DNA of 64,000 nt from an uncultured Verrucomicrobiota bacterium (GTDB lineage: Bacteria > Verrucomicrobiota > Kiritimatiellia > JAAZAB01): the NCBI GenBank assembly GCA_964486075.1, contig CAZALU010000002.1, positions 1,013-65,012 on the forward strand, in the 5' to 3' direction. Below the pieces are notes generated by a model. That model worked only from the letters and a program-made list of their open reading frames with translations, searched no databases and was not told the origin of the DNA. Of the stretch, positions 7,248 through 56,815 are shown in pieces. The position numbers and the translations under genes were made by a program. Numbering within the stretch: the first letter of the stretch is position 1; the number at the start of each line of letters is the position of its first letter.

Positions 7248-7994
7248 TCAAGTCCGTGGAGCTTGCCTGGACTGCAGGATGCGGTGCAAGGGTATCATCA
7301 GCTCAGCGAGCTGGGCGTGGTCCATTTTTAATAATTCGTCCAGCGGAGTGGCGTTGCTGATGTTGAAATCCCCGCTTTGTATCCGGCGCAGTTGTTCCAG
7401 GTGAGCCCCGCAGCCCAAGGCGTCGCCGATATCCGAGCACAGAGTGCGCACATATACGCCTTTGCTGCAGTGCAGGTGGAATGTGGCGCGTGGTGGCGCG
7501 AAATCAAGCAGGCTGAATTCATGGATGTGAATCAGTTTCGGACGCCGCTCTACCGTCTGGCCCTTACGCGCCAGCTTATACAACGGCACGCCATTTTTTT
7601 TCACTGCGGATACCATGGGCGGCGTCTGCAGGATGTCTCCGGTCAGGCGTTGTATCTGGGCGAGGAGCTCTTCGCGGGTCACCTGCTGGTAGTCGCTTTC
7701 CCGGATGGTCACGCCGGCAGCGTCCTGGGTGTCGGTAGCCACGCCCAGTCGCAGGGTGCCGTCGTAGGTTTTATCGCCCGCCAGCAGGGAGTTCGCCAGC
7801 TTGGTGCCCCGCCCGATCATGATTACCAGCAGGCCGGTGGCCTGCGGATCCAGAGTGCCGGCGTGGCCAACTTTGTCGAACCGGAAATAGCGACGGATGC
7901 TGTCCACTACATCGTGCGAGGTGAGACCGGCAGGCTTGTCAACCAGAGCAATGCCGTCCATGGTTCTTTGAAATGAAGGGGTAAACATTTGCAT
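7248..7994 (-). CDS. truB: tRNA pseudouridine(55) synthase
   Basis: 248 aa; LVDKPAGLTSHDVVDSIRRYFRFDKVGHAGTLDPQATGLLVIMIG contains the catalytic Asp motif of TruB. Position between rbfA and ribF/rpsO is canonical. Confidence 0.9.
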   Translation of the reverse strand: MQMFTPSFQRTMDGIALVDKPAGLTSHDVVDSIRRYFRFDKVGHAGTLDPQATGLLVIMIGRGTKLANSLLAGDKTYDGTLRLGVATDTQDAAGVTIRESDYQQVTREELLAQIQRLTGDILQTPPMVSAVKKNGVPLYKLARKGQTVERRPKLIHIHEFSLLDFAPPRATFHLHCSKGVYVRTLCSDIGDALGCGAHLEQLRRIQSGDFNISNATPLDELLKMDHAQLAELMIPLHRILQSRQAPRT

Positions 7995-8057
7995 GGTTTG
8001 GGAACACTTTCTGCGTTTGTGTGGCTACCGTCCGCCTGGCTGACGAACCATTTTATA

Positions 8058-8227
8058 CGTTAAGTTTCGAAAATAACCCGTTGGGTTGTTTTCGAAACTA
8101 ACGTGGTTAACCACGTTAGGCCTCGTTTTACGCGGCCATCATCACGTGACCGCGTTGGCACGTGGAACGTGACTCACGTGGCGGACTTTTGGGCGAATTT
8201 TGCACCGGCTCGGCGCAAAATTCAGGT
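8058..8227. repeat. copy A of a ~170-bp dispersed element (CACGTG-palindrome cluster plus a 16-bp hairpin); reverse-complement of copy B at 21402-21572
   Basis: Direct comparison: the reverse complement of 8058-8227 aligns with 21402-21572 at roughly 85% identity. The 56-nt core aacgtggttaaccacgttagtttcgaaaacaacccaacgggttattttcgaaactt is near-identical in both copies. It contains CACGTG three times, the palindrome AACGTGGTTAACCACGTT and the hairpin AGTTTCGAAAA-N15-TTTTCGAAACT. Confidence 0.85.
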
Positions 8228-8271
8228 TATATAACTGTTTAAATGAAATGCCCGGGTGACGCAGTTTGGCA

Positions 8272-8658
8272 TCAGGTGACGGGCGCGTCATCTTCCTTTG
8301 GCGCTGGATTGTCGGTTTCCAATTTGGAAAGCAAATTCAGTACCCGGTCACCTTCTTCCAGCGAGGTGTCCAGATTGAAAGTCAGGCGGGGCGTGTATTT
8401 AAGGACAAGATTGGCATTGATATGTTCCTGTATTTCGGTGCGGTGCCGACCCAGCAACGTCAGCATGCGCGGACGTTCTGCATGATGATCGCGGATCGAG
8501 ACATACACTCGCGCTTCCCTCAAATCCTTGCTGGCCGCGACCCGGGTGATGGTCACGGCGGACAGATCAAACCGGTTTTCGTGCATGATCCGGAACAGGA
8601 CTCCGCCGATTTCGCGTTTTAGTAGCTCATTGACCCTGGTTAAACGATCGACACTCAT
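8272..8658 (-). CDS. rbfA: ribosome-binding factor A
   Basis: 128 aa; RVNELLKREIGGVL...ITRVAASKDLREARVYV is RbfA-like. Located between infB and truB. Confidence 0.9.
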   Translation of the reverse strand: MSVDRLTRVNELLKREIGGVLFRIMHENRFDLSAVTITRVAASKDLREARVYVSIRDHHAERPRMLTLLGRHRTEIQEHINANLVLKYTPRLTFNLDTSLEEGDRVLNLLSKLETDNPAPKEDDAPVT

Positions 8659-8679
8659 GGGAAAAATAGGGGAAAGAGG

Positions 8680-10785
8680 TTACAGCTTCTGGGGTACTTT
8701 TTCGATTTCAAAGAAATCGATCATATCCCCAACTTTAAAGGCGGCAAAGTTGTCCAAGCGTATGCCGCATTCCTGGCCTTCCCGTGCTTCACTGACGTCG
8801 TCTTGGAATCTCCTCAGCGACTCAAGCGATCCCTGGTAGAGGACATCATTTTTGCGGACCACGCGTGCGATGCAGCGGAAACCGACGCGTCCGCTGAGCA
8901 TGAGGCAACCGGCCACTTGGCTCTTCTTGGAGATCGGGAAAATCTGACGGACTTCGGCCTTACCCACAAATTTTTCGCGGATTTCCGGCGCCAGCATACC
9001 GGTCATGGCTTCCCGTAATTGGTCCACGATGTCGTAAATGATGTTGTAGAGCCGGATTGCGACGCCTTCCTGCTTGGCGGACTTGGTAACGCCGTCTTCC
9101 TTGCTGACGTTAAAGCCGATGACGACTGCGGCGGAAGCCTTGGCGAGCAGGACATCATTTTCGTTTATATTACCCACGCCGGCCAGCAGGATTGAGATGG
9201 CCACTTTTTCGCTTTTAATTTCCCCCAGCGCCTTTTCAATCGCTTCGAGAGAGCCGCGCGTATCGCACTTAAGAATCAGGCGCAATTCCAAGCGTTGATT
9301 CTTGGCCATCTGGTTGAAGAGTTCCTGCAAGGAAACTTTGGCTGGCGAGACGAGCTTTTGAGCGTGCAGTTCCTCACTTCTTTTTTCGACCAGCTCCCGC
9401 GCTGCCTTATCGCTCGCATAAACCTTGAACTTCTCTCCGGCCTGGGGCACACCCGATAGCCCTATGCATTTCACAGGGGTTGAAGGCGATGCCGTGCGGA
9501 CCTTGATGCCGTGATCGTTGATCAGCGCCTTGACTCTTCCGCAGAATTGTCCGCAGACCAACATATCGCCCACGTGCAAGATGCCCTGGGTTACTAGTAG
9601 ATGGATCACCGGTCCCATGCCCGCTTCCATTTTGGCTTCAACCACGAAACCGCCGGCACGTCCCTTGGATGTGGCTTTCAATTCCAGCATTTCCGCCTGG
9701 AGCATGATCATCTCCAGCAAATGGTCGAGCCCCTTGCCGGTCTGGGCGCTGACCGGACAGCAAATCAGTGTGCCACCCCAGTCTTCGGGCATCAAGCCGA
9801 TGGCCTGTAGTTGTTGCTTGACCCGATCGGGATTGGCCGCCGGTAGGTCCATCTTGTTGATGGCCACGATGATTGTCGTTTGCGCCGCCTGAGCGTGCCG
9901 GATCGCTTCCTCGGTCTGCGGCATGATGCCGTCGTCGGAGGCGATGACGATGATGGCGATATCTGTCAGGTTAGCGCCGCGTGCGCGCATGGCCGTGAAG
10001 GCGGCATGCCCCGGTGTGTCGAGAAACGTTATCTTGTAGCCATGATGGTCGATGGTGTAGGCGCCAATGTGCTGGGTTATACCCCCGGCTTCGCTCTTGG
10101 CGACCGCAGTGTTGCGGATGCGGTCCAGCAGGGATGTCTTGCCGTGGTCGATATGCCCTAAAAATGTTATAACCGGCGGGCGGTTTTCGAGATCTTCCGG
10201 ACGGATCAGCTCGTCCTCATCGTCTTCCGCCTTTTTGAGGGGCAGTTTCTGATCGATCTGTTTTTTTTCGTGCTCCAGCATCAGCCCGTGCTTTTCAGCA
10301 ATCTTCTGAGCTATTTTCAGGTCAATTCGCTCGTTGATCGAGGCAAAAATATTCATGGTCATCAGCTCGGTGATAAGCTGGTTGGGCTTCAAACCAAGTT
10401 GTTCGGCCAGATCTCTGACGATAATCGCACCCCGCATGATGATAACTTTGGGCGTTTCCTGCGCCGGAGCGGGCGCGGGGTCCGGGGCTTGTAGCTCCGG
10501 CGGGGGGGGGGCGAGAGCCGGGACAGAAAGTTTAGCCGCTGCTGCGTTAGTTTTGGGCGCCGGCGCATGAATCTTGGGCGATGCCGGTTTGGCGTGGGCG
10601 GGCATGGGCGCGGGCGCGGCGGGGGTTGCGGCGGCAGGCTGGGCGACTTCGGCCCGCATGCGGCTGACCGCCTGTTCATTTACCGAACTTGAAGGGCTTT
10701 TTGCGACGATGCCCGCCGCCTGCAAGCGGGCCATCAGATCCTTGTTCGTTAACCCAAGTTCTTTAGCTAAATCGTAAATTCTCAT
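8680..10785 (-). CDS. infB: translation initiation factor IF-2
   Basis: 701 aa. N-terminal [11 protein letters not shown], a Pro/Ala-rich linker, GTPase motifs ([21 protein letters not shown]) and a C-terminal IF2 beta-barrel. Confidence 0.95.
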
Positions 10786-12044
10786 TGTGGTTCGAGCGAT
10801 GGGGTTGCAGCCAAGGCGGCGGCTTCTTTAATGGCTTGAGCGGTCTCGACATCAAAACCGGTTGTTTCCTGCAAGTCGCTGATATCTGAGTCCAGAATGC
10901 CTTCCAAGGTCAGGAAGCCGGCCTTGACCAATTTCTCGGCCTTCTCTTGGTCAACTCCGTTCAGGCGCGTTAGGGCTTCGACGGCCATGGCCACTTTCTC
11001 GTCGAAGCTAATGTCGTCCTTGTTTTTCTCGATTTCGATCTTCCAGCCCAAGAGCTTGGAGGTCAGGCGGGCATTCTGGCCCCGCTTGCCGATTGCCAGC
11101 GAGAGCTGGTCGGTGTCCACGATGACCACGATCTTGTGTTGCGCTTCATCAATGACCAACTGGTTCAGCTTGGCCGGATTAAGCGCATTGGTGGCGTAAG
11201 TCTTGGTGTCGGCGCTCCAGCGCACAATATCTATTTTTTCGCCCAGCAGCTCCCGGACGATGTTTTTCACCCGCATGCCTTTCATGCCGACGCAGGCGCC
11301 TACCGGGTCCACCTTCTCGTCCTTGCTCAAGACCGCGATCTTGGTACGGAAGCCGGCCTCGCGGGCAATATCCTTGATCGTTACCGTGCCGTCGGCGATC
11401 TCCGATATTTCCAGCTCGAAAAGACGTTTGACGAAATTGGGGTGACTGCGGGACAGTACAATATGATGTCCGCTGACATGATCCTGTACGCTGAGAATAT
11501 ACGCCCGGACCCGGTCGCCGACCTGATATTCCTCAGTCATGACCCGTTCCCGGGCGGGCATAATCGCCTCGACCCGGCCAAGGTCCACGATCAGGTCGCC
11601 ACGTTCCAGGCGCACGATCGTGCCGCTTACAATATCGCCCAGACGGTCCATGTACTCCTTGACCACGATTTCTTTTTCCACCTGCCTGATTTTCTGGACA
11701 ATAGCCTGTTTGGCGGTTTGGGCGGCGATCCGGCCTAATTCCCTGGTGGGGATCTCAATTTCAATCTCGTCGCCGATCTCGGCTTCGGGTTTCGTGCGGC
11801 GGGCTTCATGCAGCGAAATCTGGGAGTTGCGGAACTTGACCGGCTGCGCAACATCCACCTTGGCGAAGGCGCGGATTGCCATGGATTTCGGGTCGATGAC
11901 GATGCGGAAATCACGCGCGGGTCCCACGCTCTTTTTGGAGGCGGATATCAGGGCGGCTTCGACCATCTGGATGAGCACTGTGCGATCGATGCCCCGCTCT
12001 TTCTCCATGTTCTCTATGACTGCAAGTAAATCTGGAGTACTCAT
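10782..12044 (-). CDS. nusA: transcription termination/antitermination factor NusA
   Basis: 420 aa; N-terminal domain, S1 and two KH domains (…VKNIVRELLGEKIDIV…). Its 3' end overlaps the infB start by 4 nt. Confidence 0.95.
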   Translation of the reverse strand: MSTPDLLAVIENMEKERGIDRTVLIQMVEAALISASKKSVGPARDFRIVIDPKSMAIRAFAKVDVAQPVKFRNSQISLHEARRTKPEAEIGDEIEIEIPTRELGRIAAQTAKQAIVQKIRQVEKEIVVKEYMDRLGDIVSGTIVRLERGDLIVDLGRVEAIMPARERVMTEEYQVGDRVRAYILSVQDHVSGHHIVLSRSHPNFVKRLFELEISEIADGTVTIKDIAREAGFRTKIAVLSKDEKVDPVGACVGMKGMRVKNIVRELLGEKIDIVRWSADTKTYATNALNPAKLNQLVIDEAQHKIVVIVDTDQLSLAIGKRGQNARLTSKLLGWKIEIEKNKDDISFDEKVAMAVEALTRLNGVDQEKAEKLVKAGFLTLEGILDSDISDLQETTGFDVETAQAIKEAAALAATPSLEPQ

Positions 12045-12263
12045 GTCATTACCCGGTTTGCATACCTAGCCAGGGCCTCCCGGCTCGTTGTCAAATATCA
12101 ATTCCCATGCCCGGCCTGCGCAATATCCATCCCGCTCCACATCATCTGAACGGCTGATTATCTTTCCGTTTGCTCCAAGGCATAGTCTCAAAAAAAAGCA
12201 ATCCTAAAAAAGTTTTGCATCAAAGTCAAGCCTGTTTCCCGACGATTTTTTAGGGGCAGGGAT

Positions 12264-12395
12264 GAATGGCGCTTACTTACGCTTCCGGCTCGGCACTAAC
12301 TTGTCCTACAACGGCCCAAAAACAGGCATTCTGGAGGGTGAAACTGAGCTGGGCCGCTTCCGAAACATGCCTTAAGTAAGGTAAGCGCCATTCGG
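12264..12395 (-). other. ~130-nt long imperfect inverted repeat (candidate structured RNA / leader element) upstream of nusA
   Basis: GAATGGCGCTTACTTAC ... GTAAGGTAAGCGCCATTC forms a 17-bp closing stem around ~100 nt that contains further GGCCC/GGGCC pairing and a direct CGGAAGCG repeat. It lies in the 508-bp non-coding gap between the ABC permease gene and nusA. No rimP gene is present in that gap. Confidence 0.3.
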
Positions 12396-12551
12396 GGCAG
12401 AGCAAATTTTGGATCTTCCGCGGAATCTGTGGGTTGATCGGAAATAATTCACCATAGCAGGCACGGAAGCACGGAGAAGAGATTGCTTGAAATTGCCTGA
12501 CAATTAACCACCCATAAATTGTGCTATGGAACCACATTTATTTTCTCCCGC

Positions 12552-14243
12552 TCAAATCCGGAAAATCGCACCCAATCGTTTCCCTAACAGAAAATTGGCC
12601 GCCAGGATGGTGATCAGCAGGAAGACCATGGCCCAGGTCCCGAGGGCTGAGGCGATGAACCGGCCTTCGCCCAGGAGCTGGAATAGTTCATACAGTGCCT
12701 TGGTGATGGGGTAGTAGATCTGCTTCTGGGCCAGCATCAGGGAATCCGAAACTTCCAGCATGGAAAAACTGAACACCAGCAGGGCGCCCGCGATCAGGTT
12801 AGCGCTGATCAGCGGCAGGCTGATGCGCAGGACCGTTCGGACCGGCGGACAGCCTAAATTGCGGGCCGCTTCCTCCAGCGTGACCGGTGTCTGCTGGAAC
12901 CCGGCTACGGCGGAGCGGACGACGTAGGGCAGGCGTCGGACGGCATAGGCGAGGATCAACAGTGGTACCGGGTTCTCGGTCGGATTCAGGAAGGCCAGCC
13001 AGCGTCCCGGCTGGCTCATGGCAATGTAACCGAAGGCCACGATGATCCCGGGCGCGGCCAGGGGTAGCATTGTCAGGGCATCGAGCGCCCCGCGCCAGCG
13101 CAGGGTACTGCGCACGATCACATAGGCGACGGCGACGCCTAGGAGCAGGTCTACGACCATGGCCAGGGCTGAATAGCGCAGGCTATTCTGGATGCTCGGC
13201 AGGGTCAGGCTGTGACCCAACGCCTGGAGGTAATGGTCCCCGGTCCAGAGGCCCGGCAGGATCGTGCGATACCAGGCCTGGCTGACGCTGGTCAATACCA
13301 CGCCCAGGTGGGGCAGGACTGCCAGCAGGAACACGGCGCCGAAGGCGATGGCCGCCAGCCAGGCCCGGAGGCCGGTCAGTTGGATCGGCGCGGCCATCGG
13401 TCCCGTTTTGGCCAGCATTGCGCTGCCGGTCCGGCCCAAAAGCATTTTTCCGGCCAGGTAGAGACTGGTTGAGGCCGCCAGCAGAATGACGACTAGGGCG
13501 TAGGGGAACGGGCTGGCCTCGATATCCTTGATACCATCGAAAATTTGGACCGCGGTGACGCGGGAGTAATCGAGCATCAGCGGTGTGCCTAGTTCCGTGA
13601 ACGACCAGATGAACACGATGATTCCGCCGGCGAACAGGCCCGGCATGATCAGGGGCAGGGTGATCCTGCGGAAGCGAGGCCAGCCGGAAGAGCCCAGATT
13701 TTCCGCCGCCTCTTCCAACGCCGGGTCGAGGTTAGAGATCGCAGCCACCGCGTTCAGATAAAATATGGGATACAGGTGCAGGGCTTCAGTCGCAGCGACC
13801 GCCCAAAAGCGGCCGGTTCCCAGCCAGTTGATGGCCTGCGGCCAGTCGATAATCCCCAAGTGCACCAGCGCGGCATTGATCGCTCCGTATTGGCCCAGCA
13901 GTTGCCGGATGCCAATCGCGCCAACGAACGGTGGCAGGATCATAGGCGCCAGGATCAGCCCGGAAAGCAGGGTCTTGCCAGCGAAATCGCAGCGGGCCGC
14001 CAGCATCGAGAGCGGCAATCCGACCAGGATCACCAGGAGCGTCGTCACCACCGCCAGCGCAAAACTGTTCCAGAGTCCTTCGAGGTAGATCGGGTTCTGG
14101 AAGACTTCGCCGAGGAAGGCGAGGGTGGGGCGCCCGTCGATCAGGAAGCAGCCCTTGATCGTCTGGAGCAGTGGCCAGATGAGGAAGATGCCCAGGAAGG
14201 CCAGGGCCAGCAGGCTGATTAATATGGCGCCGGTCTGTTTCAT
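12552..14243 (-). CDS. ABC transporter permease, fused two-domain type (FbpB/ThiP-like, 12 TM)
   Basis: 563 aa with two tandem binding-protein-dependent transport inner-membrane domains, hydrophobic throughout. Operonic with a solute-binding protein gene. Confidence 0.85.
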   Translation of the reverse strand: MKQTGAILISLLALAFLGIFLIWPLLQTIKGCFLIDGRPTLAFLGEVFQNPIYLEGLWNSFALAVVTTLLVILVGLPLSMLAARCDFAGKTLLSGLILAPMILPPFVGAIGIRQLLGQYGAINAALVHLGIIDWPQAINWLGTGRFWAVAATEALHLYPIFYLNAVAAISNLDPALEEAAENLGSSGWPRFRRITLPLIMPGLFAGGIIVFIWSFTELGTPLMLDYSRVTAVQIFDGIKDIEASPFPYALVVILLAASTSLYLAGKMLLGRTGSAMLAKTGPMAAPIQLTGLRAWLAAIAFGAVFLLAVLPHLGVVLTSVSQAWYRTILPGLWTGDHYLQALGHSLTLPSIQNSLRYSALAMVVDLLLGVAVAYVIVRSTLRWRGALDALTMLPLAAPGIIVAFGYIAMSQPGRWLAFLNPTENPVPLLILAYAVRRLPYVVRSAVAGFQQTPVTLEEAARNLGCPPVRTVLRISLPLISANLIAGALLVFSFSMLEVSDSLMLAQKQIYYPITKALYELFQLLGEGRFIASALGTWAMVFLLITILAANFLLGKRLGAIFRI

Positions 14244-14254
14244 TCTTAAAAGGT

Positions 14255-14275
14255 GTTCAGGGTTCGGGGTTCAGG
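14255..14275. repeat. heptamer tandem repeat GTTCAGG-GTTCGGG-GTTCAGG (= CCTGAAC-CCCGAAC-CCTGAAC on the opposite strand)
   Basis: Three tandem 7-mers sit 12 nt upstream of the permease start codon. A 19-mer (ctgaaccccgaaccctgaa) matches 41304-41322 exactly. Confidence 0.6.
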
Positions 14276-14283
14276 TGATGTAA

Positions 14284-14637
14284 TTATTCAGGTTTGTTTA
14301 CCGGTGCCATTGAGACGCGAGCTTTAACGACTTCTTCCTGATAACATCGCTCCTCACTTTTTCGTCTATTTGGATGCAAATTAAGAACTTTACCGGTGAA
14401 TGGTTGGGAATCTCCCTTCCGATACACCACAGAATCTCCGCTTGGCCCAAGGCCTTCTTCGATATCGTCAGGACGAACAACAACTGATGTGCAACCAGCC
14501 AGAATCAAGCCCCCAATAAAGTATGTGATTACGAATCGGAAGCGAAGCGTTCTATAGGCAAAGACGTGCAGCATTGCCGCTGTCGCCGCTATGGCGATCC
14601 AATGTGATCTTTTGATTGTCATCACCAAGTGCCGCAA
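14284..14637 (-). CDS. small putative lipoprotein / membrane protein
   Basis: 117-aa ORF. A hydrophobic segment is followed by a lipobox-like LILAGC, and the C-terminal part is hydrophilic. It sits between the SBP and permease genes. The start codon is uncertain. Confidence 0.45.
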   Translation of the reverse strand: MRHLVMTIKRSHWIAIAATAAMLHVFAYRTLRFRFVITYFIGGLILAGCTSVVVRPDDIEEGLGPSGDSVVYRKGDSQPFTGKVLNLHPNRRKSEERCYQEEVVKARVSMAPVNKPE

Positions 14638-14677
14638 AGCATGTGCGGCCTCTTTGCATGAATTTCCTGGCTGAACC

Positions 14678-16204
14678 CTAAAGTCTCTGTCCGGCCAACT
14701 CCCTGGCCTGCCGGTACTGCGCGCGGAAAAAAATTATCCACTCCCGCGCCAGGCGCACCTCCTCCAGCTTATTGCCCAAACGGTGGCTGCTCGTTGCAAG
14801 GATGGCGGCATAATCAGCGCCTGCGGGTAGGCTATTCAGCGCGGCCATGGCCTGCGGGCAGACCGCCGGGCCGCCCGCCCGGTGAATGGTTTCCCAGGCC
14901 GCCACCAACTCGTTATGCGTGTCGATGCACATGGCCCGGACCAGGACGCGGATGACGCTGAACAAAGGGCCGGTCCATTCCGGATGATAGGTAAATCCGG
15001 TGGCTCGCTTATAGGGCATTGCGTTCGGATCCGACATGTGGCGGAGGTGTTCGGGCGTGTAGAGATCGCGGCGGACCGGCAGACGTCGCAGGGCGTAGTG
15101 GATCGGTCCCCCGGGTTCGCCGACGCGGTAATCCCACAACTGCTGGCCCTCCGGGCTGAGACAAAAATCGACGAAGCGTTCCGCCAGCTCACGATGCGGC
15201 GCGCCTTTCAGCATGCTGATGGGATCCACCGAGACCGAGGACCCCCCGGCCGGGGTGATGTAATGCATCCGTTGCGAATTTTCGTTGCGCGCCGTCGTTT
15301 CGCTTTCAAAACGTCCGTAGTAATCGATGCACATCCCGGCGGCGGCATCTCCTTGGGAAACGTCGGTAACCACCTTGCTGGCGGAATCGGTGAAATATTT
15401 GGCGTTGGCGCCGATCTGACGGACCACATTCAGGCCGCGCTGCCAGCCGATGGCGAGGGACTCGGGAGCGGCATCTACTGGCGTTTCCCGGCGCTCTGCT
15501 AGTTCGTTGGCCATCTGCTCCTGGATCAGCATTTCGAATGCTTTGGCGATCGAGCCGCTTTTGGTGGGATCGGCCAGGGCCACCTGCCGAAAATAGAGGG
15601 AATCGGTCAGATCAAGCCATTGGCGGGGGGTGCGTATGATGCCGCGAGCCCGCAGGACATCATCGTTGTAGCAAATGCCGAAGCTGGTCAGGCAACAGCC
15701 ATACCAGCGGTCCCTGGTGTCATAAAATTCTTCGCCCGAGAACGTGTGGGGAATGATGTCCTCGGTCAACCAGTCTGGGTGACGCTCGCTCAGGCCGCAG
15801 GGCTCGGTGCGGTCCTTGGCGGCCTGCCGGGCATGGTCGTATTGACCGCCACCGAAAAAAAGATCGATGCCGATGCCGGGTCGGTTCACCCTCCGGGCGG
15901 CTTCGTATTCGCTGTCGAGGTAGCGGACGATCTCGCTGGTGCCGCCGACATTCCGCCAGTCGATGGCCACGTTCTCGCCGAATTGGCGCATGTGCCAGCG
16001 CCGGAATGCGGTCTCGAACTCTTTCCGGACGGCCTCGTTATGCGGGCTGATGATCGTCAGCGTCCGCGCGTTACGCGGCGCGGCTTCACCTTTCGGCCGG
16101 AGCAGGAAGGGAATGGCCAGGGTTGCGGCCAGGGCCAGGAATAGCAGCGCGAGTTTAAGGTTGCGAGCGTTCATTGGTTTGATGCGGGCCATGTCCGCAC
16201 CCAT
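14678..16204 (-). CDS. ABC transporter periplasmic substrate-binding protein (family-1/Fe3+-type SBP, unusually long)
   Basis: 508 aa. Signal-peptide-like LKLALLFLALAATLA is followed by TLTIISPHNEAVRKEFETAF...WRNVGGTSEIV, typical of AfuA/FbpA/ThiB-type SBPs. No ATPase gene is adjacent. Confidence 0.75.
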   Translation of the reverse strand: MGADMARIKPMNARNLKLALLFLALAATLAIPFLLRPKGEAAPRNARTLTIISPHNEAVRKEFETAFRRWHMRQFGENVAIDWRNVGGTSEIVRYLDSEYEAARRVNRPGIGIDLFFGGGQYDHARQAAKDRTEPCGLSERHPDWLTEDIIPHTFSGEEFYDTRDRWYGCCLTSFGICYNDDVLRARGIIRTPRQWLDLTDSLYFRQVALADPTKSGSIAKAFEMLIQEQMANELAERRETPVDAAPESLAIGWQRGLNVVRQIGANAKYFTDSASKVVTDVSQGDAAAGMCIDYYGRFESETTARNENSQRMHYITPAGGSSVSVDPISMLKGAPHRELAERFVDFCLSPEGQQLWDYRVGEPGGPIHYALRRLPVRRDLYTPEHLRHMSDPNAMPYKRATGFTYHPEWTGPLFSVIRVLVRAMCIDTHNELVAAWETIHRAGGPAVCPQAMAALNSLPAGADYAAILATSSHRLGNKLEEVRLAREWIIFFRAQYRQARELAGQRL

Positions 16205-16511
16205 GTTTACTTGCTAGTCTCAGTGTGTTGAATTCGGTTCGAAAAAAAAAACGGCGGCGATCTCCACGTCGCTTCGCTAGTGGCCACTTGGCACCACAGG
16301 TGCCGAGGGGGTGGACCGTCTATGGGTTTGCCTCGCTCGCGCATACACGAATATGGCGCTTCACGCGGCGCACCCGCATCCAGCCCAAGCGGGCCTTGCT
16401 ATTTCGAACCCCTCGACAAGCTCGGGTACCCGAATTCGAAACACGGTGGCACCGGGCTTCGCTCGGAGCTGCGCCCGTAAAAATAGCTGACGCGGAAAAC
16501 ACAGGATTTGG

Positions 16512-17456
16512 TTAAAAGCTATTGGCCTTGATAAAGGCCATCAGTTCGGCCAGGTCGGCCGTGGCCAGGCCGACGCAGGTATCGGCGCAGCCGTAATAAA
16601 CGCTGATTTTTCCCCGGGATTTGTCGTGGAGCATGGCGGCAGGGAAGACGACGTTCGGGACGTCGCCGACGCGCTCGTAAAGCTCGGTCGGGGCCAATAG
16701 GTATTTTCGGGAGCGGTAGCGCACCTTCCATGGTTTTTCGAGATCCAGGATCGCTCCGCCGGCGCAGTAAATGAAGCCGGAACAGGTCGTCTTGACGCCG
16801 TGATAGATCAGCAGCCAGCCCTCGGGCGTCTCCAGCGGTGCCGGACCCGGCCCGACCTTGGTCGCCTGCCAGGACCCGGCCGTGCCGAACACGAAACGCT
16901 GGTTGCCCCAATGTATTATGTCGGGGCTGGTGGCGTAGAAAATTTCACCGAATGGCGTATGCCCGGTGTCGCTCGGCCGGTGCAGGAGCGCGAACTTCCC
17001 GTCGATCTTGCGCGGGAACAGCACGGCGTTGCGATTGAATGGGAACAGGATATCCTGTATCATGGTAAATTGCTTGAAATCCCGGGTCGAAGCCAGACCG
17101 ATCGCTGGTCCGCTGCCGTCCGTCGGGTAGTGGCAGAACGTGAGGTAATACGTGCCCTCGATTTCGACCACGCGGGGATCGTAGGGCGAGTTTTCCGGAC
17201 GGTTAAGATTCTTGATTTCCGGATCGTGGCATTCGAATTGGATCGGATCGTTCGCTATCTTCCAATGGATTGCGTCGTGACTGCTGCCGGTCCTGAGTTC
17301 CGAATACCAGTGTTGGTTGTCGACGCGAAAAACACCGGCATAGGCTTTCTTGAATGGCACCACTGCGCTATTGAGAACGCTATGCCCGTTTTTCAGGCCA
17401 TCGACGGTAATGATCGGGTTGCTCTTATGACGTTTGAATACTTCCTCGTTGGCCAT
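16512..17456 (-). CDS. glycoside hydrolase family 130 protein (beta-mannoside phosphorylase/hydrolase-like)
   Basis: 314 aa. The 5-bladed beta-propeller signatures of GH130 are recognisable (YHGV, VVFPAA, YYGCAD; N-terminal NPII..DG...NS). The family was recognised from these motifs, not from a database search. Confidence 0.75.
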   Translation of the reverse strand: MANEEVFKRHKSNPIITVDGLKNGHSVLNSAVVPFKKAYAGVFRVDNQHWYSELRTGSSHDAIHWKIANDPIQFECHDPEIKNLNRPENSPYDPRVVEIEGTYYLTFCHYPTDGSGPAIGLASTRDFKQFTMIQDILFPFNRNAVLFPRKIDGKFALLHRPSDTGHTPFGEIFYATSPDIIHWGNQRFVFGTAGSWQATKVGPGPAPLETPEGWLLIYHGVKTTCSGFIYCAGGAILDLEKPWKVRYRSRKYLLAPTELYERVGDVPNVVFPAAMLHDKSRGKISVYYGCADTCVGLATADLAELMAFIKANSF

Positions 17457-17635
17457 GGTTATCTCCTTCTAATAACACGGGCTTTGACCGCGAGGTGGAA
17501 GCTAACACGGGCAGGTGGCGGATGCAAGAGGGTTAAATAGATTAAATCTCTGAATTGATATTGAAAATAGGATTGCCGGCCTATATCTTTGTTTCACCTT
17601 CGTCTATAAATCTTGTGGCGTATTATTAAATCACA

Positions 17636-19804
17636 TTGGAAAGGCTAACCCTCATGAAAATTAAACGCATATTTCGCAACGGGCTGTCTTTGCTTTTCGC
17701 CACGGCGTGTCTCCAAGGACAGTCAATCATGGCGGACCTCCGCCTGCCGAGCATCATCGGACCGAACATGGTCTTGCAACAGGGTGGGCCGGTTCCCATC
17801 TGGGGCTGGGCCAAAGCCGGCGAAAAGATTACGGTCAAATTCTGCGGACAGGAAGTAAGCGCCGTGACGGACTCCGCCGGAAAGTGGATCGTGCGGTTGG
17901 CGCCGTTGAAGGCCGGTGGTCCGTTCGAGATGATGATCGCAGGCGAGACCACCCATGTCTTGAAAAATGTGCTGGTGGGCGAAGTCTGGCTCGGGTCGGG
18001 CCAGTCGAATATGGCCCTGCCTGTATCCGCTTGCAGCAACGCGGCCGCGGAAACGGCCCAAGCCGATTTTCCCGAGATTCGATTCTTCCGGGTGGCGCAT
18101 GCTTCAGCCGGAAACCCGCAGGAGGATGTGGCCGGCAACTGGATGGAATGCTCTCCGCAAACTGCCGGAAAATTCTCCGCGCTGGCCTATTTCTTCGGAC
18201 GGGATCTGTATCGGCACTTGCAGACGCCGGTTGGACTTATAAGCAGTCCCGTTAGCGGTACGGAGGCCGAGTATTGGACCCCACAAGAGGCTTTTGATAT
18301 GGACGCGGAAACACGGCAGATCATGGACAAATGGTTAAATGAAATGACCGTCTATATCGATAAAATTGAGAAGTCCCAGCAGGAGTTGCGCCTCTGGAAA
18401 CAGGCTGCCGACAAAGCCCGTTTGGAAAAATCTCCCATGCCGCTCCTGCCGTCCGCATTGAATGATCCGCGGTCCGCAACGCCGGGGCGTCTTTACAACG
18501 CCATGATCCATCCCTTGATCCCTTTTGCCATCCGCGGCGTGACCTGGTATCAGGGCGAGGCCAACGTCGCTGTGGCCAGGCAATACCGCAAGCTGTTTCC
18601 GGCGCTGATCAAGGGGTGGCGCGCGGCCTGGGGCGCGGGCGATTTACCGTTCCTCTTCGTGCAGCTCGCCGCTTTTACTCCTGCATCCGAAGAACCCGTC
18701 ATGACCAGCGGCTGGGCCGAATTGCGCGAGGCGCAGACGATGGCCCTGGCTCTGCCGAAAACCGGCATGGCCATAGCAATCGATATTGGCGATGCGAACG
18801 ACATCCACCCCAAGAACAAGCAGGAGGTCGGTCGGCGTCTGGCCCTGGCGGCCCGGGCGATCGCGTATGGCGAAGACCTGGTTTATTCCGGCCCGATTTA
18901 CAAGGCGATGACCGTGGAGAGCAATAAGGTGTACATCTCATTCGAGCATGTCGGGGGCGGGCTGCAGGCCAGGGGCGGTGAACTCAAACGGTTTGAGATT
19001 GCCGGATCCGATGGTCGCTTTGTGTGGGCCAAGGCCCGCATCGACGGTCAGAGAGTCGTGGTTTGGAGCGATGCAGTGTCACAGCCGTCCGCGGTCCGTT
19101 ATGCCTGGGCAACGAATCCCGAGGGTTGCAACCTGTATAACGCCGAGGGCTTGCCGGCATCGTCGTTCCGAACCGCCGATGCGGTCGCCATGCCGCTCCC
19201 GCGGGCAACGCATGTTTATCATTGCCGACGCGTTGACAAGGGGCCGGTTATCGACGGCCGCCTGAACGATCCGCTATGGGCAAAAACTCCAAGCATCGGC
19301 CCGTTCCAAGTCATCGAGCACTACCGCTTCTCGAAATATCCCACCCTGGCCAAGCTTGCCTACGACGCCGAGAACCTATATGTCGGATTCCGTTGCCAGG
19401 AAACGGATATGGAAACGTTGGTCTGCAAGGCCGCTGGACGTGACAGCGCCGTGTACGATGACGACAGTGTTGAGATATTCTTGGATACGGCCTTGGACAG
19501 TACGCACTACTATCAGTATGTGATCAATCCCCACGGTGAGATTTTTGACACCCGCAATCGCTGGGGAACGGACTGGAATGGCACTTGTGAGGTGGCCACG
19601 GGCCGGGAGAAGGACGCCTGGACGGTAGAGCTGGCGATCCCCTGGAAATCGCTGGATATTGAGCCGCCGAAACAGGGTGCCCGGATGGGGCTGCAGCTCG
19701 CCCGTACGCGCGCGCAATTGCCAGGGGAGGTTTCTCAGTGGGCTTCGACCCAGGGACCTTCGAACCACAAGCCGACCCATTTCGGGATGCTTATTTTCGA
19801 GTGA
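17636..19804 (+). CDS. sialate O-acetylesterase (SASA family) with C-terminal CBM9-like carbohydrate-binding domain
   Basis: 722 aa. Signal peptide, the SASA SGNH-like motif GSGQSNMA, a second SASA half, then a C-terminal domain DGRLNDPLWAKTP...YVGFRC...EIFLD typical of CBM9/DOMON-like modules. Confidence 0.75.
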   Translation: MERLTLMKIKRIFRNGLSLLFATACLQGQSIMADLRLPSIIGPNMVLQQGGPVPIWGWAKAGEKITVKFCGQEVSAVTDSAGKWIVRLAPLKAGGPFEMMIAGETTHVLKNVLVGEVWLGSGQSNMALPVSACSNAAAETAQADFPEIRFFRVAHASAGNPQEDVAGNWMECSPQTAGKFSALAYFFGRDLYRHLQTPVGLISSPVSGTEAEYWTPQEAFDMDAETRQIMDKWLNEMTVYIDKIEKSQQELRLWKQAADKARLEKSPMPLLPSALNDPRSATPGRLYNAMIHPLIPFAIRGVTWYQGEANVAVARQYRKLFPALIKGWRAAWGAGDLPFLFVQLAAFTPASEEPVMTSGWAELREAQTMALALPKTGMAIAIDIGDANDIHPKNKQEVGRRLALAARAIAYGEDLVYSGPIYKAMTVESNKVYISFEHVGGGLQARGGELKRFEIAGSDGRFVWAKARIDGQRVVVWSDAVSQPSAVRYAWATNPEGCNLYNAEGLPASSFRTADAVAMPLPRATHVYHCRRVDKGPVIDGRLNDPLWAKTPSIGPFQVIEHYRFSKYPTLAKLAYDAENLYVGFRCQETDMETLVCKAAGRDSAVYDDDSVEIFLDTALDSTHYYQYVINPHGEIFDTRNRWGTDWNGTCEVATGREKDAWTVELAIPWKSLDIEPPKQGARMGLQLARTRAQLPGEVSQWASTQGPSNHKPTHFGMLIFE

Positions 19805-20203
19805 GAATAGTTGCAAAGATCAGACTCGGCCGGTCCGTAGGCATGCTGTCTCTCCCCAAGCTCCAACGCATGGGTATGCCAAAGGGTGGGGTGGCGTGTC
19901 GCTGGCCGAAGTTTGTTTCACAGCATCGGAGATAGCAGGGATAAATCCTGCGCTACTTGGGTTTGCCATGCCGTTTGCGAAGCGCTTTGCGTAGCGATGC
20001 GGCGGGTACAGCCTGCCTTATTGCTTCCCGCCCGCGAGAACCATCCTGGCATAATTTTGGTAGTGAGCGAAGGGGACTTCCGGCGGAATCATGTTTCCCA
20101 CCGTCCCGGAAACCAGGCAGCTCACGCACGCGGTAGCAGTTTGGAGAGCATCGGATGCAAGATGCGATCCTTGTGCCACGATCCTTGCCGCGCTTGATGT
20201 CAC

Positions 20204-20225
20204 GCATCGAAGATGCCGTTTTTCC
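20204..20225 (+). terminator. candidate Rho-independent terminator (GCATC-GAA-GATGC + CGTTTTT)
   Basis: A short GC hairpin is followed immediately by a T-run on the plus strand. It lies ~400 nt downstream of the esterase gene inside a 475-bp convergent gap. A near-identical hairpin (GCATCGGATGC) lies 55 nt upstream. Confidence 0.3.
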
Positions 20226-20280
20226 ATTCTTTGTCAGAAAGTCCTATGGCGCTTGAACCAGCAATCATAAAAACTGCTTT

Positions 20281-20496
20281 CTACGGTACCGGGTCAATGC
20301 CGCCGGGGTGAAAGGGGTGGCACTTGACCAGCCGCAGGAATCCCAGGCCGAGCCCTTTTACGCAGCCATGTTTTTTCACCGCTGCCAAGCAGTATGATGA
20401 ACAAGACGGGTAGAAGCGGCAACAGGGACCCAATAGAGGAGAAATAAGAAACTGATAACATCGGATCAGGACAATCAGCAGTATTTTCATGAGCAT
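20281..20496 (-). CDS. yidD: membrane protein insertion efficiency factor YidD
   Basis: [48 protein letters not shown] is the classic YidD sequence. The ORF-track start at 20604 is an upstream extension. Confidence 0.8.
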
Positions 20497-20611
20497 GGCC
20501 CTCCATCGGATGGAGATATTAAGGAGTCCAAATAGTCTATATACTGCAATTGGTAGAGCAGGCTTTACGCCTGCTATTTGGCCGGAAAAAACCGTACCTC
20601 CCATATCTAAA

Positions 20612-21031
20612 CTATTGTGGACTTACTTGTAAAATACCCGCTTGTTTGGCCAGCCGGAGCAATTCCTCCTCAATATCTTTCCAGGAGGCGTTGACTATGG
20701 ATCGTCGCGCGATCAGGATGATGTCCACTTTGCCCTGAAAAAGATGGCGGTTCAAACGAAATGCTTCCCGTAAGCGACGCCGGGAACGGTTGCGCGCCAC
20801 CGCTGCTCCTGTTTTACGGCTGGCCACTACACCCAGACGCAAGGATGCATCCTCCGCTTTCCGCAGCCATAAGACCATTAACCGGCCTATACAACGGTGG
20901 CCCTGGGCATAAGTTTCCTGGAACAACGCCGAACGGATCAGCCTTTGGCTCCGCGCCAAGCTGCGATTAATTGGAGGGTCGGGATTCACGATCGGCAAGC
21001 AACCGGCCATCCTCCCTGCGAACCGTGTCAT
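20612..21031 (-). CDS. rnpA: ribonuclease P protein component
   Basis: Basic protein with [20 protein letters not shown]...[28 protein letters not shown] matching the RnpA RNR motif region. Located between rpmH and yidD. The exact start (21031 or the internal Met at ~21010) is uncertain. Confidence 0.8.
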
Positions 21032-21084
21032 GGGTTCGCGTACGCAGGGTCATGCCGCAGTTTACGGCAAGCCCAGAGCTGGTT

Positions 21085-21219
21085 TTAGACTGCCAATCGG
21101 GTGCGCCCTTTGCGGCGCCGGTTGGCTAAAATCTTGCGTCCGTTGGCCGTGGCCATACGGGCGCGGAAGCCGTGTTTGCGTTTGCGTTTTTTGACGGAGG
21201 GTTGATAGGTGCGCTTCAT
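21085..21219 (-). CDS. rpmH: 50S ribosomal protein L34
   Basis: Not in the ORF track because it is shorter than 60 aa. Own translation: [44 protein letters not shown], 44 aa with TAA stop. Lies upstream of rnpA. Confidence 0.9.
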
Positions 21220-21401
21220 TGCTTGGTTTTTTCCTTTCTTATAATGCCTAAAAAGTAACTCACTAAATCATAAACGGTGGTTTTATTCAACCTGAATATT
21301 GTTTGGCAGTGCGCTACGTTCCGGAGCGCGGCCAAATCCGTCCTCCTGCTAAATTTAATTGTTATAAAATTTCTTGGACTTTCGCCGGGATATTTAGTAT
21401 T

Positions 21402-21572
21402 ACCTAAATTTTGCGCCGAGACGGCGCAGAGTTCACCTAAAAGGCCGCCACGTGAGTCGCGTTCCGTGTGTCAACGCGGTCACGTGATGATGGTCGCGTA
21501 AAACGCGGCCAAACGGGGTTAACCACGTTAGTTTCGAAAACAACCCAACGGGTTATTTTCGAAACTTCACGT
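21402..21572. repeat. copy B of the ~170-bp dispersed CACGTG-palindrome element (sense copy relative to the DedA gene)
   Basis: See copy A. It is flanked by a near-perfect 14-bp direct repeat: ATATTTAGTATTAC at 21390-21404 and ATATTTAGGTATTAG at 21632-21647. Confidence 0.85.
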
Positions 21573-21633
21573 CTTTCGCCAGCGGGCAATGCCCGCTTAG
21601 GCGAAAGTGAACATTGCACGATTATCGTGCAAT
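21573..21633 (+). other. two consecutive long perfect hairpins (15-bp nested stem CTTTCGCC-AGCGGGC..GCCCGCT-GGCGAAAG; 10-bp stem ATTGCACGAT-T-ATCGTGCAAT)
   Basis: Read directly from the sequence, located between repeat B and the DedA start codon. Confidence 0.6.
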
Positions 21634-21660
21634 ATTTAGGTATTAGGATGGCCGTGTTGC

Positions 21661-22326
21661 TTGAAATATTCAAGGGATTTAAATATGCAACCATCTTTGT
21701 TCACTGCCCGACTTGCGCTCTGGTGCCGTACGCCATTCGTGTGGGTTAAACGGCTTTACCATTGGGTATTGCATTGGGCAGATACTCCCTATGGAATGCC
21801 GGCCCTGTTTCTACTTGCTTTTGCCGAGTCGTCATTCTTTCCCATTCCGCCGGATGTGTTGTTGATAGCCCTGGCGCTGGCGATGCCCTCCCGCAGCCTG
21901 TGGTATGCCGCGGTTTGTTCGGCTGGTTCCGTTCTGGGTGGCATGGTCGGATATGCCATTGGTTATTTTTTCTGGGACACCGTGGGCCAACCGATTATCA
22001 ATTTTTATCAGGCCCAGGCGGCATTTGCCACAGTACAGGGGTATTATCAGGATAACGCTTTTTTCTATATCTTGTTGGCGGCTTTTACCCCGGTCCCCTA
22101 TAAGGTCTTTACCATTGCCGGCGGGATTTGCCAAATCCAATTCTGGCAGGAACTGGTCCTGGGTTCGCTGATTGGCCGCTCGTTGCGTTTTTTCGCGGTG
22201 GCCGGCCTGTTTTATTTTTTTGGGCCGCCGATCAAGAAATTTATCGATCGATATTTTGAGCTGCTGACCGTTCTTTTCGGAATTCTGCTGGTCGGCGGTT
22301 TCCTGGCTATTAAATATCTGCATTAA
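21661..22326 (+). CDS. DedA/YqaA family inner-membrane protein
   Basis: 221 aa, polytopic, with the AFAESSFFPIPPDVLLIALA motif characteristic of YqaA/DedA (SNARE-associated) proteins. The start may be the second Met (MQPSLF...). Confidence 0.75.
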   Translation: MKYSRDLNMQPSLFTARLALWCRTPFVWVKRLYHWVLHWADTPYGMPALFLLAFAESSFFPIPPDVLLIALALAMPSRSLWYAAVCSAGSVLGGMVGYAIGYFFWDTVGQPIINFYQAQAAFATVQGYYQDNAFFYILLAAFTPVPYKVFTIAGGICQIQFWQELVLGSLIGRSLRFFAVAGLFYFFGPPIKKFIDRYFELLTVLFGILLVGGFLAIKYLH

Positions 22327-22359
22327 ATGCGTTACGACAGGGCCCGACCAACCACTTGG

Positions 22360-23704: not shown

Positions 23705-23779
23705 AATTAGCTATCTCTTAAAACATAGCCTGCCGTTCCATTTTCAGTCAAGCCCAAATGCGACCCTGATAAAAAAACT

Positions 23780-55706: not shown

Positions 55707-55714
55707 AAATGCCT

Positions 55715-56812: not shown

Positions 56813-56815
56813 GCG

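Follow-up and report, generated by a model that had tools for sequence, protein, structure and literature searches.

A hairpin-rich repeat in an uncultured Kiritimatiellia bacterium is probably a small mobile DNA element with inverted-repeat ends and 5-bp target duplications

Several families of small repeats occupy the spacers of bacterial genomes. Correia/NEMIS of Neisseria, ERIC and RUP are small non-coding MITEs with inverted repeats and target duplications that are found in intergenic regions and operon spacers and form hairpins when transcribed, and Correia duplicates the dinucleotide TA. REP/BIME elements are mosaics of palindromic units in operon spacers with possible effects on mRNA stability; like the IS200/IS605-type families, they lack terminal inverted repeats and insert without duplicating their target. 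A further group, the TIMEs, are reportedly miniature elements derived from Tn3 with 5-bp duplications. To our knowledge, the mobile elements of the Kiritimatiellia, an uncultured lineage of the PVC superphylum, have hardly been described.

Among autonomous insertion sequences, IS1380-type elements duplicate 5 bp of AT-rich target (PMC6061673, PMC3281130). ISEcp1, for example, is flanked by AT-rich 5-bp direct repeats such as TAATA, TAAGA and TCATA, and makes use of weak alternative right ends (PMC7864471, PMC6061673). Misrecognition of the downstream end has been described for the IS1380 family, giving units with a fixed left end and alternative right ends that vary in length (PMC9330008). Another member of the family, IS1247, has IRs of 16/13 and a 5-bp DR. 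Inverted repeats of 14-16 bp and AT-rich direct repeats of 4-5 bp are typical of the family.

Here we describe a repeat found in a 64-kb window, by which we mean the whole stretch of 64,000 nucleotides that was analysed, from an uncultured Kiritimatiellia bacterium. The repeat pair is real, as a repeat search of the window recovered two inverted arms (8057-8231 and 21398-21572; 175 nt without gaps, 90% complementary, 157/175) at the places where an earlier sequence-only reading had located them. That reading put the identity at ~85%, which was right as to similarity but too low as a figure, given that copy A and copy B agree at 152 of 169 positions inside the element proper (B span 21403-21571), with 11 transitions and 6 transversions between them. 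Copy A lies between rbfA (8272-8658, minus strand) and truB (7248-7994, minus strand) in the operon nusA-infB-rbfA-truB-ribF-rpsO-pnp, and copy B occupies the divergently flanked spacer between rpmH (21085-21219, minus strand) and a DedA/YqaA-family gene (21685-22326, plus strand). These are the only two copies that blastn-short and a covariance model detected in the 64-kb window; with a third copy from another metagenome (L026), three are known, of 169 nt (copy A), 238 nt (copy B) and 199 nt (L026). Reading frames are not conserved between the copies and no protein homologue was found, the sole match among representatives being a spurious 73-aa ORF, in agreement with the earlier view that no ORF is tied to the repeat. 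Both window copies are, as had also been stated, in sense orientation to the downstream gene, but with n = 2 this has a 50% chance of coincidence and thus no statistical weight, and copy B at the same time lies upstream of rpmH, which is on the opposite strand.

We judge with good, though not full, confidence that the repeat is a MITE (a small mobile element of non-coding DNA), which was one of the options first put forward (a MITE/REP-like mobile element) and the one favoured by the empty orthologous sites, the terminal inverted repeats, the 5-bp duplications and the third copy elsewhere. Three hallmarks of a MITE were found in turn: three small copies devoid of coding capacity, inverted repeats at the termini, and duplication of a fixed number of target bases, with perfect 5-bp repeats at both window copies and an empty site for copy B. 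Owing to its inverted-repeat ends and 5-bp target duplications, we class the element as a new family within a well-known kind rather than as a novel regulatory RNA.

The insertion is most directly seen at copy B, since the orthologous site of a relative (L024/L025) reads ...ACATTTAG TATTA GGATTGCC..., with one TATTA and no element. The rpmH-yqaA spacer measures 465 nt here versus 221-236 nt in three further relatives (L021, L022 and L023). The two ends of copy B, whose positions are fixed by the duplication, match each other at 12 of 14 positions (binomial tail 3e-6), and the left one, CCTAAATTTTGCGC, doubles as the 5' arm of hairpin H1. Copy B had initially been given as 21402-21572, whereas its right side runs 68 nt further, to 21640. 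Likewise, the 14-bp direct repeat once likened to a target-site duplication was correct in kind but not in extent, as only the 5 bp TATTA are duplicated and the remainder is the tip of the right inverted repeat, which by chance resembles the native flank. The insertion point coincides with the 3' end of a native motif, TTGGACTTTCGCCGGGATATTTAGTATTA, that may serve as a promoter; a sigma-70 scan did not call it. Coordinates of all features are given in Table 1.

Table 1. Features of the two window copies, with hairpin positions given on copy B and, where present, on copy A.
Feature	Position	Strand	Evidence or remark
Native promoter-like motif 5' of the DedA/YqaA gene, TTGGACTTTCGCCGGGATATTTAGTATTA	21366..21402	+	Kept in relatives L024, L021, L023
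Copy B, full-length element, 238 nt	21403..21640	+	TATTA on both sides; terminal inverted repeats 12/14; absent from L024/L025 orthologous site
Copy B left target-site duplication, TATTA	21398..21402	.	Single TATTA at L024/L025 empty site
Copy B right target-site duplication, TATTA	21641..21645	.	Junction matched by Logan contig L020
Copy B left terminal inverted repeat, CCTAAATTTTGCGC	21403..21416	+	12/14 to reverse complement of right end
Copy B right terminal inverted repeat, GTGCAATATTTAGG	21627..21640	+	Overlaps 3' arm of hairpin H6
Hairpin H1, AAATTTTGCGCCG-AGA-CGGCGCAGAGTT	21406..21432; copy A about 8197-8223 (-)	+	Folds; 4 pairs with two-sided change in L026
CACGTG-box region	21450..21488; copy A 8141-8179	+	Outside conserved core
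Hairpin H3a, GGTCGCG-TAAAA-CGCGGCC	21492..21510; copy A 8119-8137	+	3 two-sided pairs in L026 (GGCACTG/CAGTGCC)
Palindrome H3, GTTAAC-centred	21512..21529; copy A 8100-8117	+	Perfect in copy A only; no varying pairs
Hairpin H4, 37 nt	21530..21566; copy A 8063-8099	+	Identical in A and B; 3 two-sided pairs in L026
Hairpin H5, CTTTCGCC...GGCGAAAG	21573..21607	+	Copy B and L026 only; outer stem kept
Hairpin H6, ATTGCACGAT-T-ATCGTGCAAT	21613..21633	+	Copy B and L026 only; one A-T to G-C change in L026
Copy A, short form, 169 nt	8058..8226	-	Left end CCTGAATTTTGCGC (8213-8226) same as copy B
Copy A target-site duplication, rbfA side, TATAA on minus strand	8227..8231	.	Flank comparison
Copy A target-site duplication, truB side, TATAA on minus strand	8053..8057	.	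Flank comparison

Copy A stops on its right side just after H4, at ...CTTAACG. Hairpins H5 and H6 are missing from it, as is the right inverted repeat. Its actual right end shares only 7 of 14 positions with the left inverted repeat and is therefore called a variant end. The TATAA pair that flanks it could be due to chance, for which we estimate a probability of less than about 1.5%. The rbfA-truB spacer is 277 nt long here versus 24-36 nt in related Kiritimatiellia (TruB identity 79-89%), whose spacers gave no BLAST or covariance-model match to the element and did not include a direct empty site corresponding to copy A. A common left end is combined with different right ends in the long and short forms, each with a 5-bp flanking repeat, and a deletion in copy A would also be compatible with this arrangement.

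The third copy, which was found via the spurious ORF, is diverged and sits in unrelated flanks. It is 78% identical to copy B over 140 nt, a stretch that spans H3 to H6 as well as the right inverted repeat, and its right end, GCGCAATATTCGGG, is the same end as that of copy B; since L026 has it in an unrelated flank, the right-end sequence is part of the element, not of the target. The ends of L026 match each other at 9/14 and those of copy B at 10-11/14, and its flanks, TATCA and TAATA, show no clean duplication, in keeping with decay. The entire CACGTG-box region (39 alignment columns) is missing from it, and every other module is kept. No match to the element was obtained from Rfam or the sequence collections, and neither 185,579 species representatives nor the JGI metagenomes contained a related sequence when searched with an H4-arm pattern, which was poorly chosen because the H4 arms vary in L026.

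Both strands of the element fold far more stably than shuffled sequences (z between -6 and -7.3). In the comparison of the three copies, 96.3% of cells are paired, five hairpins are kept in L026 and 14 pairs have changed on both sides, a number that none of 500 shuffles reached and that compares with 0-1 in slid controls. The hairpins are thus conserved by compensatory change, although these changes could stem from palindrome-templated mutation instead of selection. H3 is the block of best-kept primary sequence, with 25 nt (GCCAAACGGGGTTAACCACGTTAGT) identical in copy B and L026, and H5 of L026 has gained one additional base pair through changes in both arms. Of the sequence-only reading, the GCGCCG hairpin and the 37-nt hairpin are both real, and its hint of structural conservation proved genuine when L026 was added, with the 14 two-sided pairs, but the A/B differences cited for it are not compensatory. 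Indeed, two-sided change is seen in none of the 57 pairs between copies A and B: the cited GGCCGCG/CGAGGCC stem contains a G.A mismatch in copy A, and the other case is a one-sided change from G-C to G-U.

These hairpins invite the question of whether the element is in the first place a structured RNA (a small RNA, as was proposed at first, or a cis-acting mRNA element), with the hairpins selected at the RNA level on the sense strand and the repeats being copies of an RNA module. We regard this as quite unlikely. The predicted folds are very stable, but the antisense strand folds about equally well, and the real covariation across three copies is accompanied by no Rfam family at threshold, the best being istR with 22 bits against a gathering score of 45. 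All six one-sided stem transitions of the A/B pair yield G-U on the sense strand; however, H4 of copies A and B as well as H1 and H4 of L026 show C.A on the sense strand and G-U on the other, and our own count of wobble versus A.C events (5 sense, 3 antisense) gives no strand bias. Although both window copies are sense to their downstream gene, no promoter or terminator was called. An Rfam 15 scan of the window matched only RNase P (48955-49412), with permissive scans yielding sub-threshold matches only. The element is furthermore absent from the orthologous loci and carries inverted repeats and target duplications, and its spread is therefore explained without an RNA function. The small-RNA proposal of the earlier reading thus fell on the Rfam result, the empty orthologous loci and the missing strand bias. 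The element could be taken wrongly for a regulatory RNA.

Mobility as single-stranded DNA by an HUH (Y1) transposase, as for REP/BIME- or IS200/IS605-type palindromic elements, is very improbable. As in REP/BIME, the element is a mosaic of palindromic units in operon intergenic spacers; its several hairpins include one at each end, and hairpin structure is kept while sequence is not. In contrast to these families, it is bounded by terminal inverted repeats and has duplicated its target, as the pentamer at the empty site demonstrates. In addition, the window copies are oppositely oriented on one replichore with no GC-skew switch, wobble events show no strand bias, and neither a Y1 transposase nor a RAYT gene was seen in the window. 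A derivation from REP/BIME or IS200/IS605 was thus rejected on the inverted repeats, the duplication and the lack of strand bias.

The CACGTG boxes had suggested a repeated cis-regulatory cassette with sites for a CACGTG-recognising regulator, which we now consider extremely unlikely. The two copies do hold 5 of the 11 CACGTG hexamers of the 64-kb window, and in copy A three boxes at 8-nt spacing are joined by the palindrome TCACGTGA. However, the boxes are decayed in copy B, so that of the three or four boxes initially reported, CACGTG itself occurs three times in copy A and twice in copy B, and only copy A has the 18-bp palindrome AACGTGGTTAACCACGTT in perfect form, copy B having AACGGGG. 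The box region is, moreover, the very part that L026 lacks, and the cassette is missing at both loci in relatives and is therefore not a conserved regulatory region.

A Tn3-derived miniature element is barely credible: 5-bp duplications are present, but ends of about 14 nt with CCT at the tip are unlike the 38-bp inverted repeats of the Tn3 family, which begin with GGGG (PMC7864471). An assembly chimera, or a segmental duplication that is not mobile, as might be suspected from only two window copies in a metagenome-assembled genome, has a practically negligible chance, considering the inverted repeats, the target duplications, the third copy with different flanks in another sample, and the two junctions, which are no assembly artefact because independent Logan contigs of SRR8925755 reproduce them at 100% identity (L027, equal to window 11130-8157, for the left junction of copy A and L020, equal to window 21582-25321, for the right junction of copy B).

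Returning to the MITE reading, the mobilising enzyme is probably an IS1380-type transposase. The left inverted repeat matches the IRL (CCTAGATTCTACGT) and the reverse complement of the IRR (CCTAAATTCCACGT) of ISEcp1, the one IS1380 member compared, at 10 of 14 positions each (binomial tail 3e-4), with all differences being transitions (ISEcp1 sequences from PMC7864471 and PMC6061673). The first 8 nt of the left end are identical to the ISEcp1 IRR tip, and the AT-rich 5-bp repeats TATTA and TATAA are likewise typical of the family. The link is therefore based on a 14-nt likeness to one well-known member, the length of the duplication and the behaviour of the ends. Like ISEcp1, the ISPme1 transposable modules and IS1247, the element has inverted repeats of ~14 nt with a CCT tip and AT-rich 5-bp duplications, and its long and short forms would be consistent with units that have one left end and a variable right end. 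Unlike these, it has no transposase gene and measures 169-238 nt instead of the about 1.65 kb of a full IS, and its hairpins take in the inverted repeats, which is not known as a feature of ISEcp1. No transposase gene was present among the 40 larger ORFs scanned in the 64-kb window; as no cognate IS1380 element bearing such ends was found either, IS1380 membership is a lead only. If the link is correct, the element would exemplify how the loose right-end recognition of that family yields miniature derivatives.

The complete form, represented by copy B, ends in terminal inverted repeats of 14 nt (CCTRAATWTTGCRC type), and each of them contributes an arm to the hairpin at its end, H1 on the left and H6 on the right, with four palindromes or hairpins in between. 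The element inserted into the AT-rich pentamers TATTA and TATAA and duplicated them. In the model that we propose, an IS1380-family DDE transposase from another part of the genome would most likely act on the element in trans, and copy A may be a shortened form of 169 nt that retained the left end and transposed via a weak right-end look-alike just past H4. The terminal hairpins might be part of extended transposase-binding ends. The internal hairpins, by analogy with REP and Correia-type repeats, might keep the element movable or harmless in transcripts. Both copies should be co-transcribed with the downstream gene, one in the rbfA-truB spacer and the other in the leader or promoter region of the DedA/YqaA gene. 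It is possible, if doubtful, that H3a, H4 and H5 constitute a functional single-strand or RNA module or that IS1380-type transposition requires hairpins, and we know of no such requirement described for an IS1380-type DDE enzyme. Were an RNA module present, it could act as a processing or stability determinant through which the element is tolerated in an essential translation operon and the expression ratio of flanking genes is reset.

As a MITE, the element compares in general terms with Correia/NEMIS, ERIC and RUP in being small, non-coding and spacer-located, with inverted repeats, duplications and hairpin folds. It differs from them in its sequence, which shows no similarity, and in being a mosaic of six palindromes rather than one long inverted repeat, and from Correia also in duplicating 5 bp. 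The element does not challenge current understanding, but adds a new family with clear hallmarks, namely an empty site, terminal inverted repeats, a target duplication and long and short forms. A second small repeat, unrelated to the element, adjoins copy A in the same operon. Because both sit in the nusA-pnp operon, even core-operon spacers tolerate such insertions. The element also breaks short-read assemblies at both loci, and all three retrieved ends of the two same-strain Logan contigs fall in repeat elements, which is only suggestive as to copy number.

Among the three candidates raised in the sequence-only reading, a mobile element is borne out by an empty site, terminal inverted repeats and 5-bp duplications, and the best explanation for the hairpin-rich non-coding repeat is a new family of miniature non-autonomous transposons. 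The repeat itself is real: a repeat search of the window returned an ungapped inverted pair (8057-8231 / 21398-21572, 175 nt, 90% complementary), sensitive blastn gave 157/175 identity between the two arms, and neither blastn nor a covariance model found further copies in the window. Beyond the core, likeness between the flanks of the two copies was not significant, with 30/500 and 64/500 shuffles scoring as high or higher. The short form, copy A, is housed in the rbfA-truB spacer and the full form, copy B, in the divergent spacer between rpmH and a DedA/YqaA-family gene; operon genes were named from NCBIfam, Pfam and ORF reading, with nusA, rpsO and pnp named from ORF size and synteny with annotated relatives, and the top TruB and YqaA relatives are Kiritimatiellia/Lentisphaerae MAGs, which makes the source an uncultured member of the Kiritimatiellia, in the PVC group. 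The sense orientation to the downstream gene that had been claimed is true of both copies, although n is only 2 and copy B lies equally upstream of rpmH on the opposite strand. A replication origin at copy B, which adjoins rpmH, was rejected, as there is no GC-skew switch and DnaA boxes are not enriched.

Coordinates of the short element copy, other repeats and neighbouring features (window positions unless a contig is named)
Feature	Position	Strand	Remark
Copy A	8058-8226	-	169 nt; 152/169 identical to copy B
Second small repeat family	7040-7196	+	~145 nt, unrelated to the element
Second small repeat family	25289-25440	-	
Second small repeat family	34181-34213	+	partial
DedA/YqaA upstream motif	21366-21402		
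DedA/YqaA upstream motif	L024 539-567		relative
DedA/YqaA upstream motif	L021 ~3863-3888		relative
DedA/YqaA upstream motif	L023 ~3932-3961		relative
nusA	10782-12044	-	ORF size and synteny
infB	8680-10785	-	NCBIfam/Pfam/ORF reading
rbfA	8272-8658	-	NCBIfam/Pfam/ORF reading
truB	7248-7994	-	NCBIfam/Pfam/ORF reading
ribF	6039-6986	-	NCBIfam/Pfam/ORF reading
rpsO	5679-5942	-	ORF size and synteny
pnp	3452-5569	-	ORF size and synteny
rpmH	21085-21219	-	followed by rnpA and yidD, both -
DedA/YqaA-family gene	21685-22326	+	

The boundaries of the element were fixed by a third copy. A spurious 85-aa ORF crossing copy B, searched against 1.8 billion protein representatives, had P0241 as its sole match, encoded on a 504-nt ENA contig (L026) whose minus strand has a diverged copy with 78% identity to copy B across 140 nt. 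This match starts at the GTTAAC palindrome, takes in hairpin H4 and then 68 nt that are found in copy B and missing from copy A, and stops at GCGCAATATTCGGG, while the flanks of the L026 copy are unrelated to those of copy B. Since the match extends to GCGCAATATTCGGG amid unrelated flanks, the ...GTGCAATATTTAGG at 21627-21640 is part of the element, and its reverse complement CCTAAATATTGCAC agrees with the left end CCTAAATTTTGCGC at 12/14 positions. With the right end thus located, copy B occupies 21403-21640 and is a 238-nt element with 14-nt terminal inverted repeats of type CCTRAATWTTGCRC and a 5-bp duplication, TATTA. No inverted repeats had been found with boundaries taken from the 14-bp direct repeat said to bracket copy B, a result superseded by L026; of that direct repeat the TATTA pentamer is indeed duplicated, whereas the rest is an 8-nt resemblance, ATATTTAG, between the right inverted-repeat tip and the native flank. 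At 21632-21645 the tip ATATTTAGG repeats the native ATATTTAG just left of the insertion point (21390-21402), and the native sequence is kept in the relatives L024 and L021. This match of tip and flank is unlikely to be due to chance, and the element may prefer targets like its own end.

Comparison with relatives shows the repeat to be an insertion. In the 87% relative L024/L025 the copy B site is exactly empty, reading ...GGGACATTTAG TATTA GGATTGCC... with one TATTA, against ...GGGATATTTAG TATTA (238 nt) TATTA GGATGGCC... with two in the window. The rpmH-yqaA spacer measures 465 nt here versus 221-236 nt in the relatives L021-L023 (82-83% YqaA identity), and the rbfA-truB spacer 277 nt versus 24-36 nt in L005, L006-L010 and L011-L013 (79-89% TruB identity), the spacers of the latter being without similarity to the element. 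Two Logan contigs from SRR8925755, the same strain, L027 (window 11130-8157) and L020 (window 21582-25321), are each 100% identical to the window, and independently confirm the left junction of copy A and the right junction of copy B.

Copy A shares its left end, CCTGAATTTTGCGC, with copy B, terminates at ...CTTAACG directly past H4 and has a perfect TATAA on either side, while its right end agrees with the inverted-repeat consensus at 7/14 positions only. Either a weak internal look-alike served as the right end when copy A moved, or copy A arose by deletion and its flanking 5-bp repeat is coincidental, with an estimated probability of at most ~1.5% for such a coincidence.

Both copies fold strongly on both strands (-75 to -81 kcal/mol, z -6 to -7.3 versus dinucleotide shuffles). 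Between A and B, two-sided compensatory changes number 0 in 57 pairs, and the compensatory pairs reported earlier do not hold, one being a one-sided G-C to G-U change and the other stem having a G.A mismatch in copy A. Aligning L026 with the two copies gives six helices with 60 pairs, 96.3% paired, and 14 two-sided changes (four in H1, three each in H3a, H4 and H5, one in H6), the three in H5 reflecting the gain, on both arms, of one additional base pair; 0/500 shuffles reach the observed pairing and change values, and slid controls give 0-1. Hairpin structure is thus conserved while sequence changes, as these 14 changes are unmatched in the controls, and the structural conservation suggested from sequence holds once more copies are aligned. 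An inverted repeat forms one arm of H1 and one of H6, which makes the two ends structurally symmetric, and we infer that the hairpins serve in transposase recognition or in tolerance inside transcripts.

An RNA gene, by comparison, gained no positive evidence. The hairpin conservation is not strand-specific: over the three-copy helix table wobble events split five to three between the sense and the antisense strand, and per-hairpin energies favour a strand that differs from copy to copy. A strand-specific RNA had been suggested by six changes to G-U on the sense strand between A and B, a reading not upheld after H4 and L026 were counted. At gathering thresholds Rfam has no match at the element, its sole match in the window being RNase P RNA (48955-49412); permissive scans there returned sub-threshold noise only, no tRNAs were found, and a homologue search with the translated open antisense frame of copy A gave no candidate. 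The element is not a CACGTG regulatory cassette, with two boxes lost in copy B and the whole region missing from L026; the boxes lie outside the conserved core, and the stretch whose primary sequence is conserved best, GCCAAACGGGGTTAACCACGTTAGT, is the same in copy B and L026.

No transposase was found among the 40 larger ORFs scanned in the window. Given the CC-tipped 14-nt ends and the 5-bp AT-rich duplications, we considered the IS1380 family. ISEcp1 has the inverted repeats IRL CCTAGATTCTACGT and IRR ACGTGGAATTTAGG (PMC7864471); the direct repeats it makes are AT-rich and 5 bp long (TAATA, TAAGA, TCATA), and weak alternatives can serve it as right ends (PMC6061673; PMC7864471). For IS1247, another member of the family, IRs of 16/13 and a DR of 5 bp are given (PMC3281130), and misrecognition of downstream end-like sequences by the family has been reviewed (PMC9330008). 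The left end of the element matches both ISEcp1 repeats at 10/14 (binomial tail 3e-4, with one family member compared), it shares its first eight bases with the IRR tip, and all differences are transitions. The behaviour of the family also fits long and short forms with a common left end. As a lead, an IS1380-type enzyme probably mobilises the repeat; no cognate element was found.

Scans of GTDB species representatives and JGI metagenomes with an H4-arm pattern (AGTTTCGAAAA-N12-18-TTTTCGAAACT) returned unrelated palindromes only, which does not establish absence as the arms vary in L026; plasmid, phage and viral-contig collections held no match to the element. One JGI pattern match, the AT-rich L016 (Ga0224499_10013814, 1044-1231), has H4-like outer arms, a different inner stem and then CACGT. 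It scores 18.8 bits on both strands against the covariance model and is probably unrelated, because the search pattern itself selected it and probably drives the score as well. Contig ends of L020 and L027 fall within copy A (element position 70), within copy B at H5 and 32 nt inside the second repeat family, that is, inside repeat elements in 3/3 cases. These breaks are consistent with both repeat families interrupting short-read assemblies, and suggest, without proving, additional copies elsewhere in the genome.

The ends of the second family resemble inverted repeats by eye (GCAATTATAATTATGGCC ... GGCCATAATTACAATTAC). One of its copies fills the truB-ribF spacer (261 nt here versus 0-16 nt in relatives), so that two different small insertions occupy consecutive spacers of the same operon. 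The ribF-rpsO spacer measures 342 nt in L006 (6699-7040) and L011 (6693-7034) versus 96 nt here, and L024 306-530 holds ~225 nt in the rpmH-yqaA spacer together with a second, degenerate copy of a promoter-like motif; these lineage-specific long spacers may be other small insertions. The motif, TTGGACTTYCGCC...TTTAGTAT, precedes the DedA/YqaA gene in all relatives and may be a promoter (-35 TTGGAC, 17-nt spacer, TATTAG/TATGAA), with no call there in a sigma-70 scan. Because the element inserted exactly at the 3' hexamer of the motif, the DedA/YqaA leader may now be ~240 nt longer.

In relatives, yidC comes after rpmH-rnpA-yidD. In the window, yidD (20281-20604) has as its next large ORF a CBM9/SASA esterase-like gene on the plus strand (17636-19804), the ORF list for 17636-20604 has no minus-strand entry of yidC size, and synteny looks broken there relative to relatives. 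Repeat families D1 and D2 represent coding paralogy and not mobile repeats, since three tandem type II/IV secretion ATPase (T2SSE) paralogues at 53994-58510 explain both. Finally, a 35-nt direct repeat at 39389-39423 and 63831-63865 (GCTAGAAGCGGCGCCCCCGCCGCTTTCTTCTCTTG, 86% identical) looks like a terminator, with a T-rich tail after a GC-rich hairpin.
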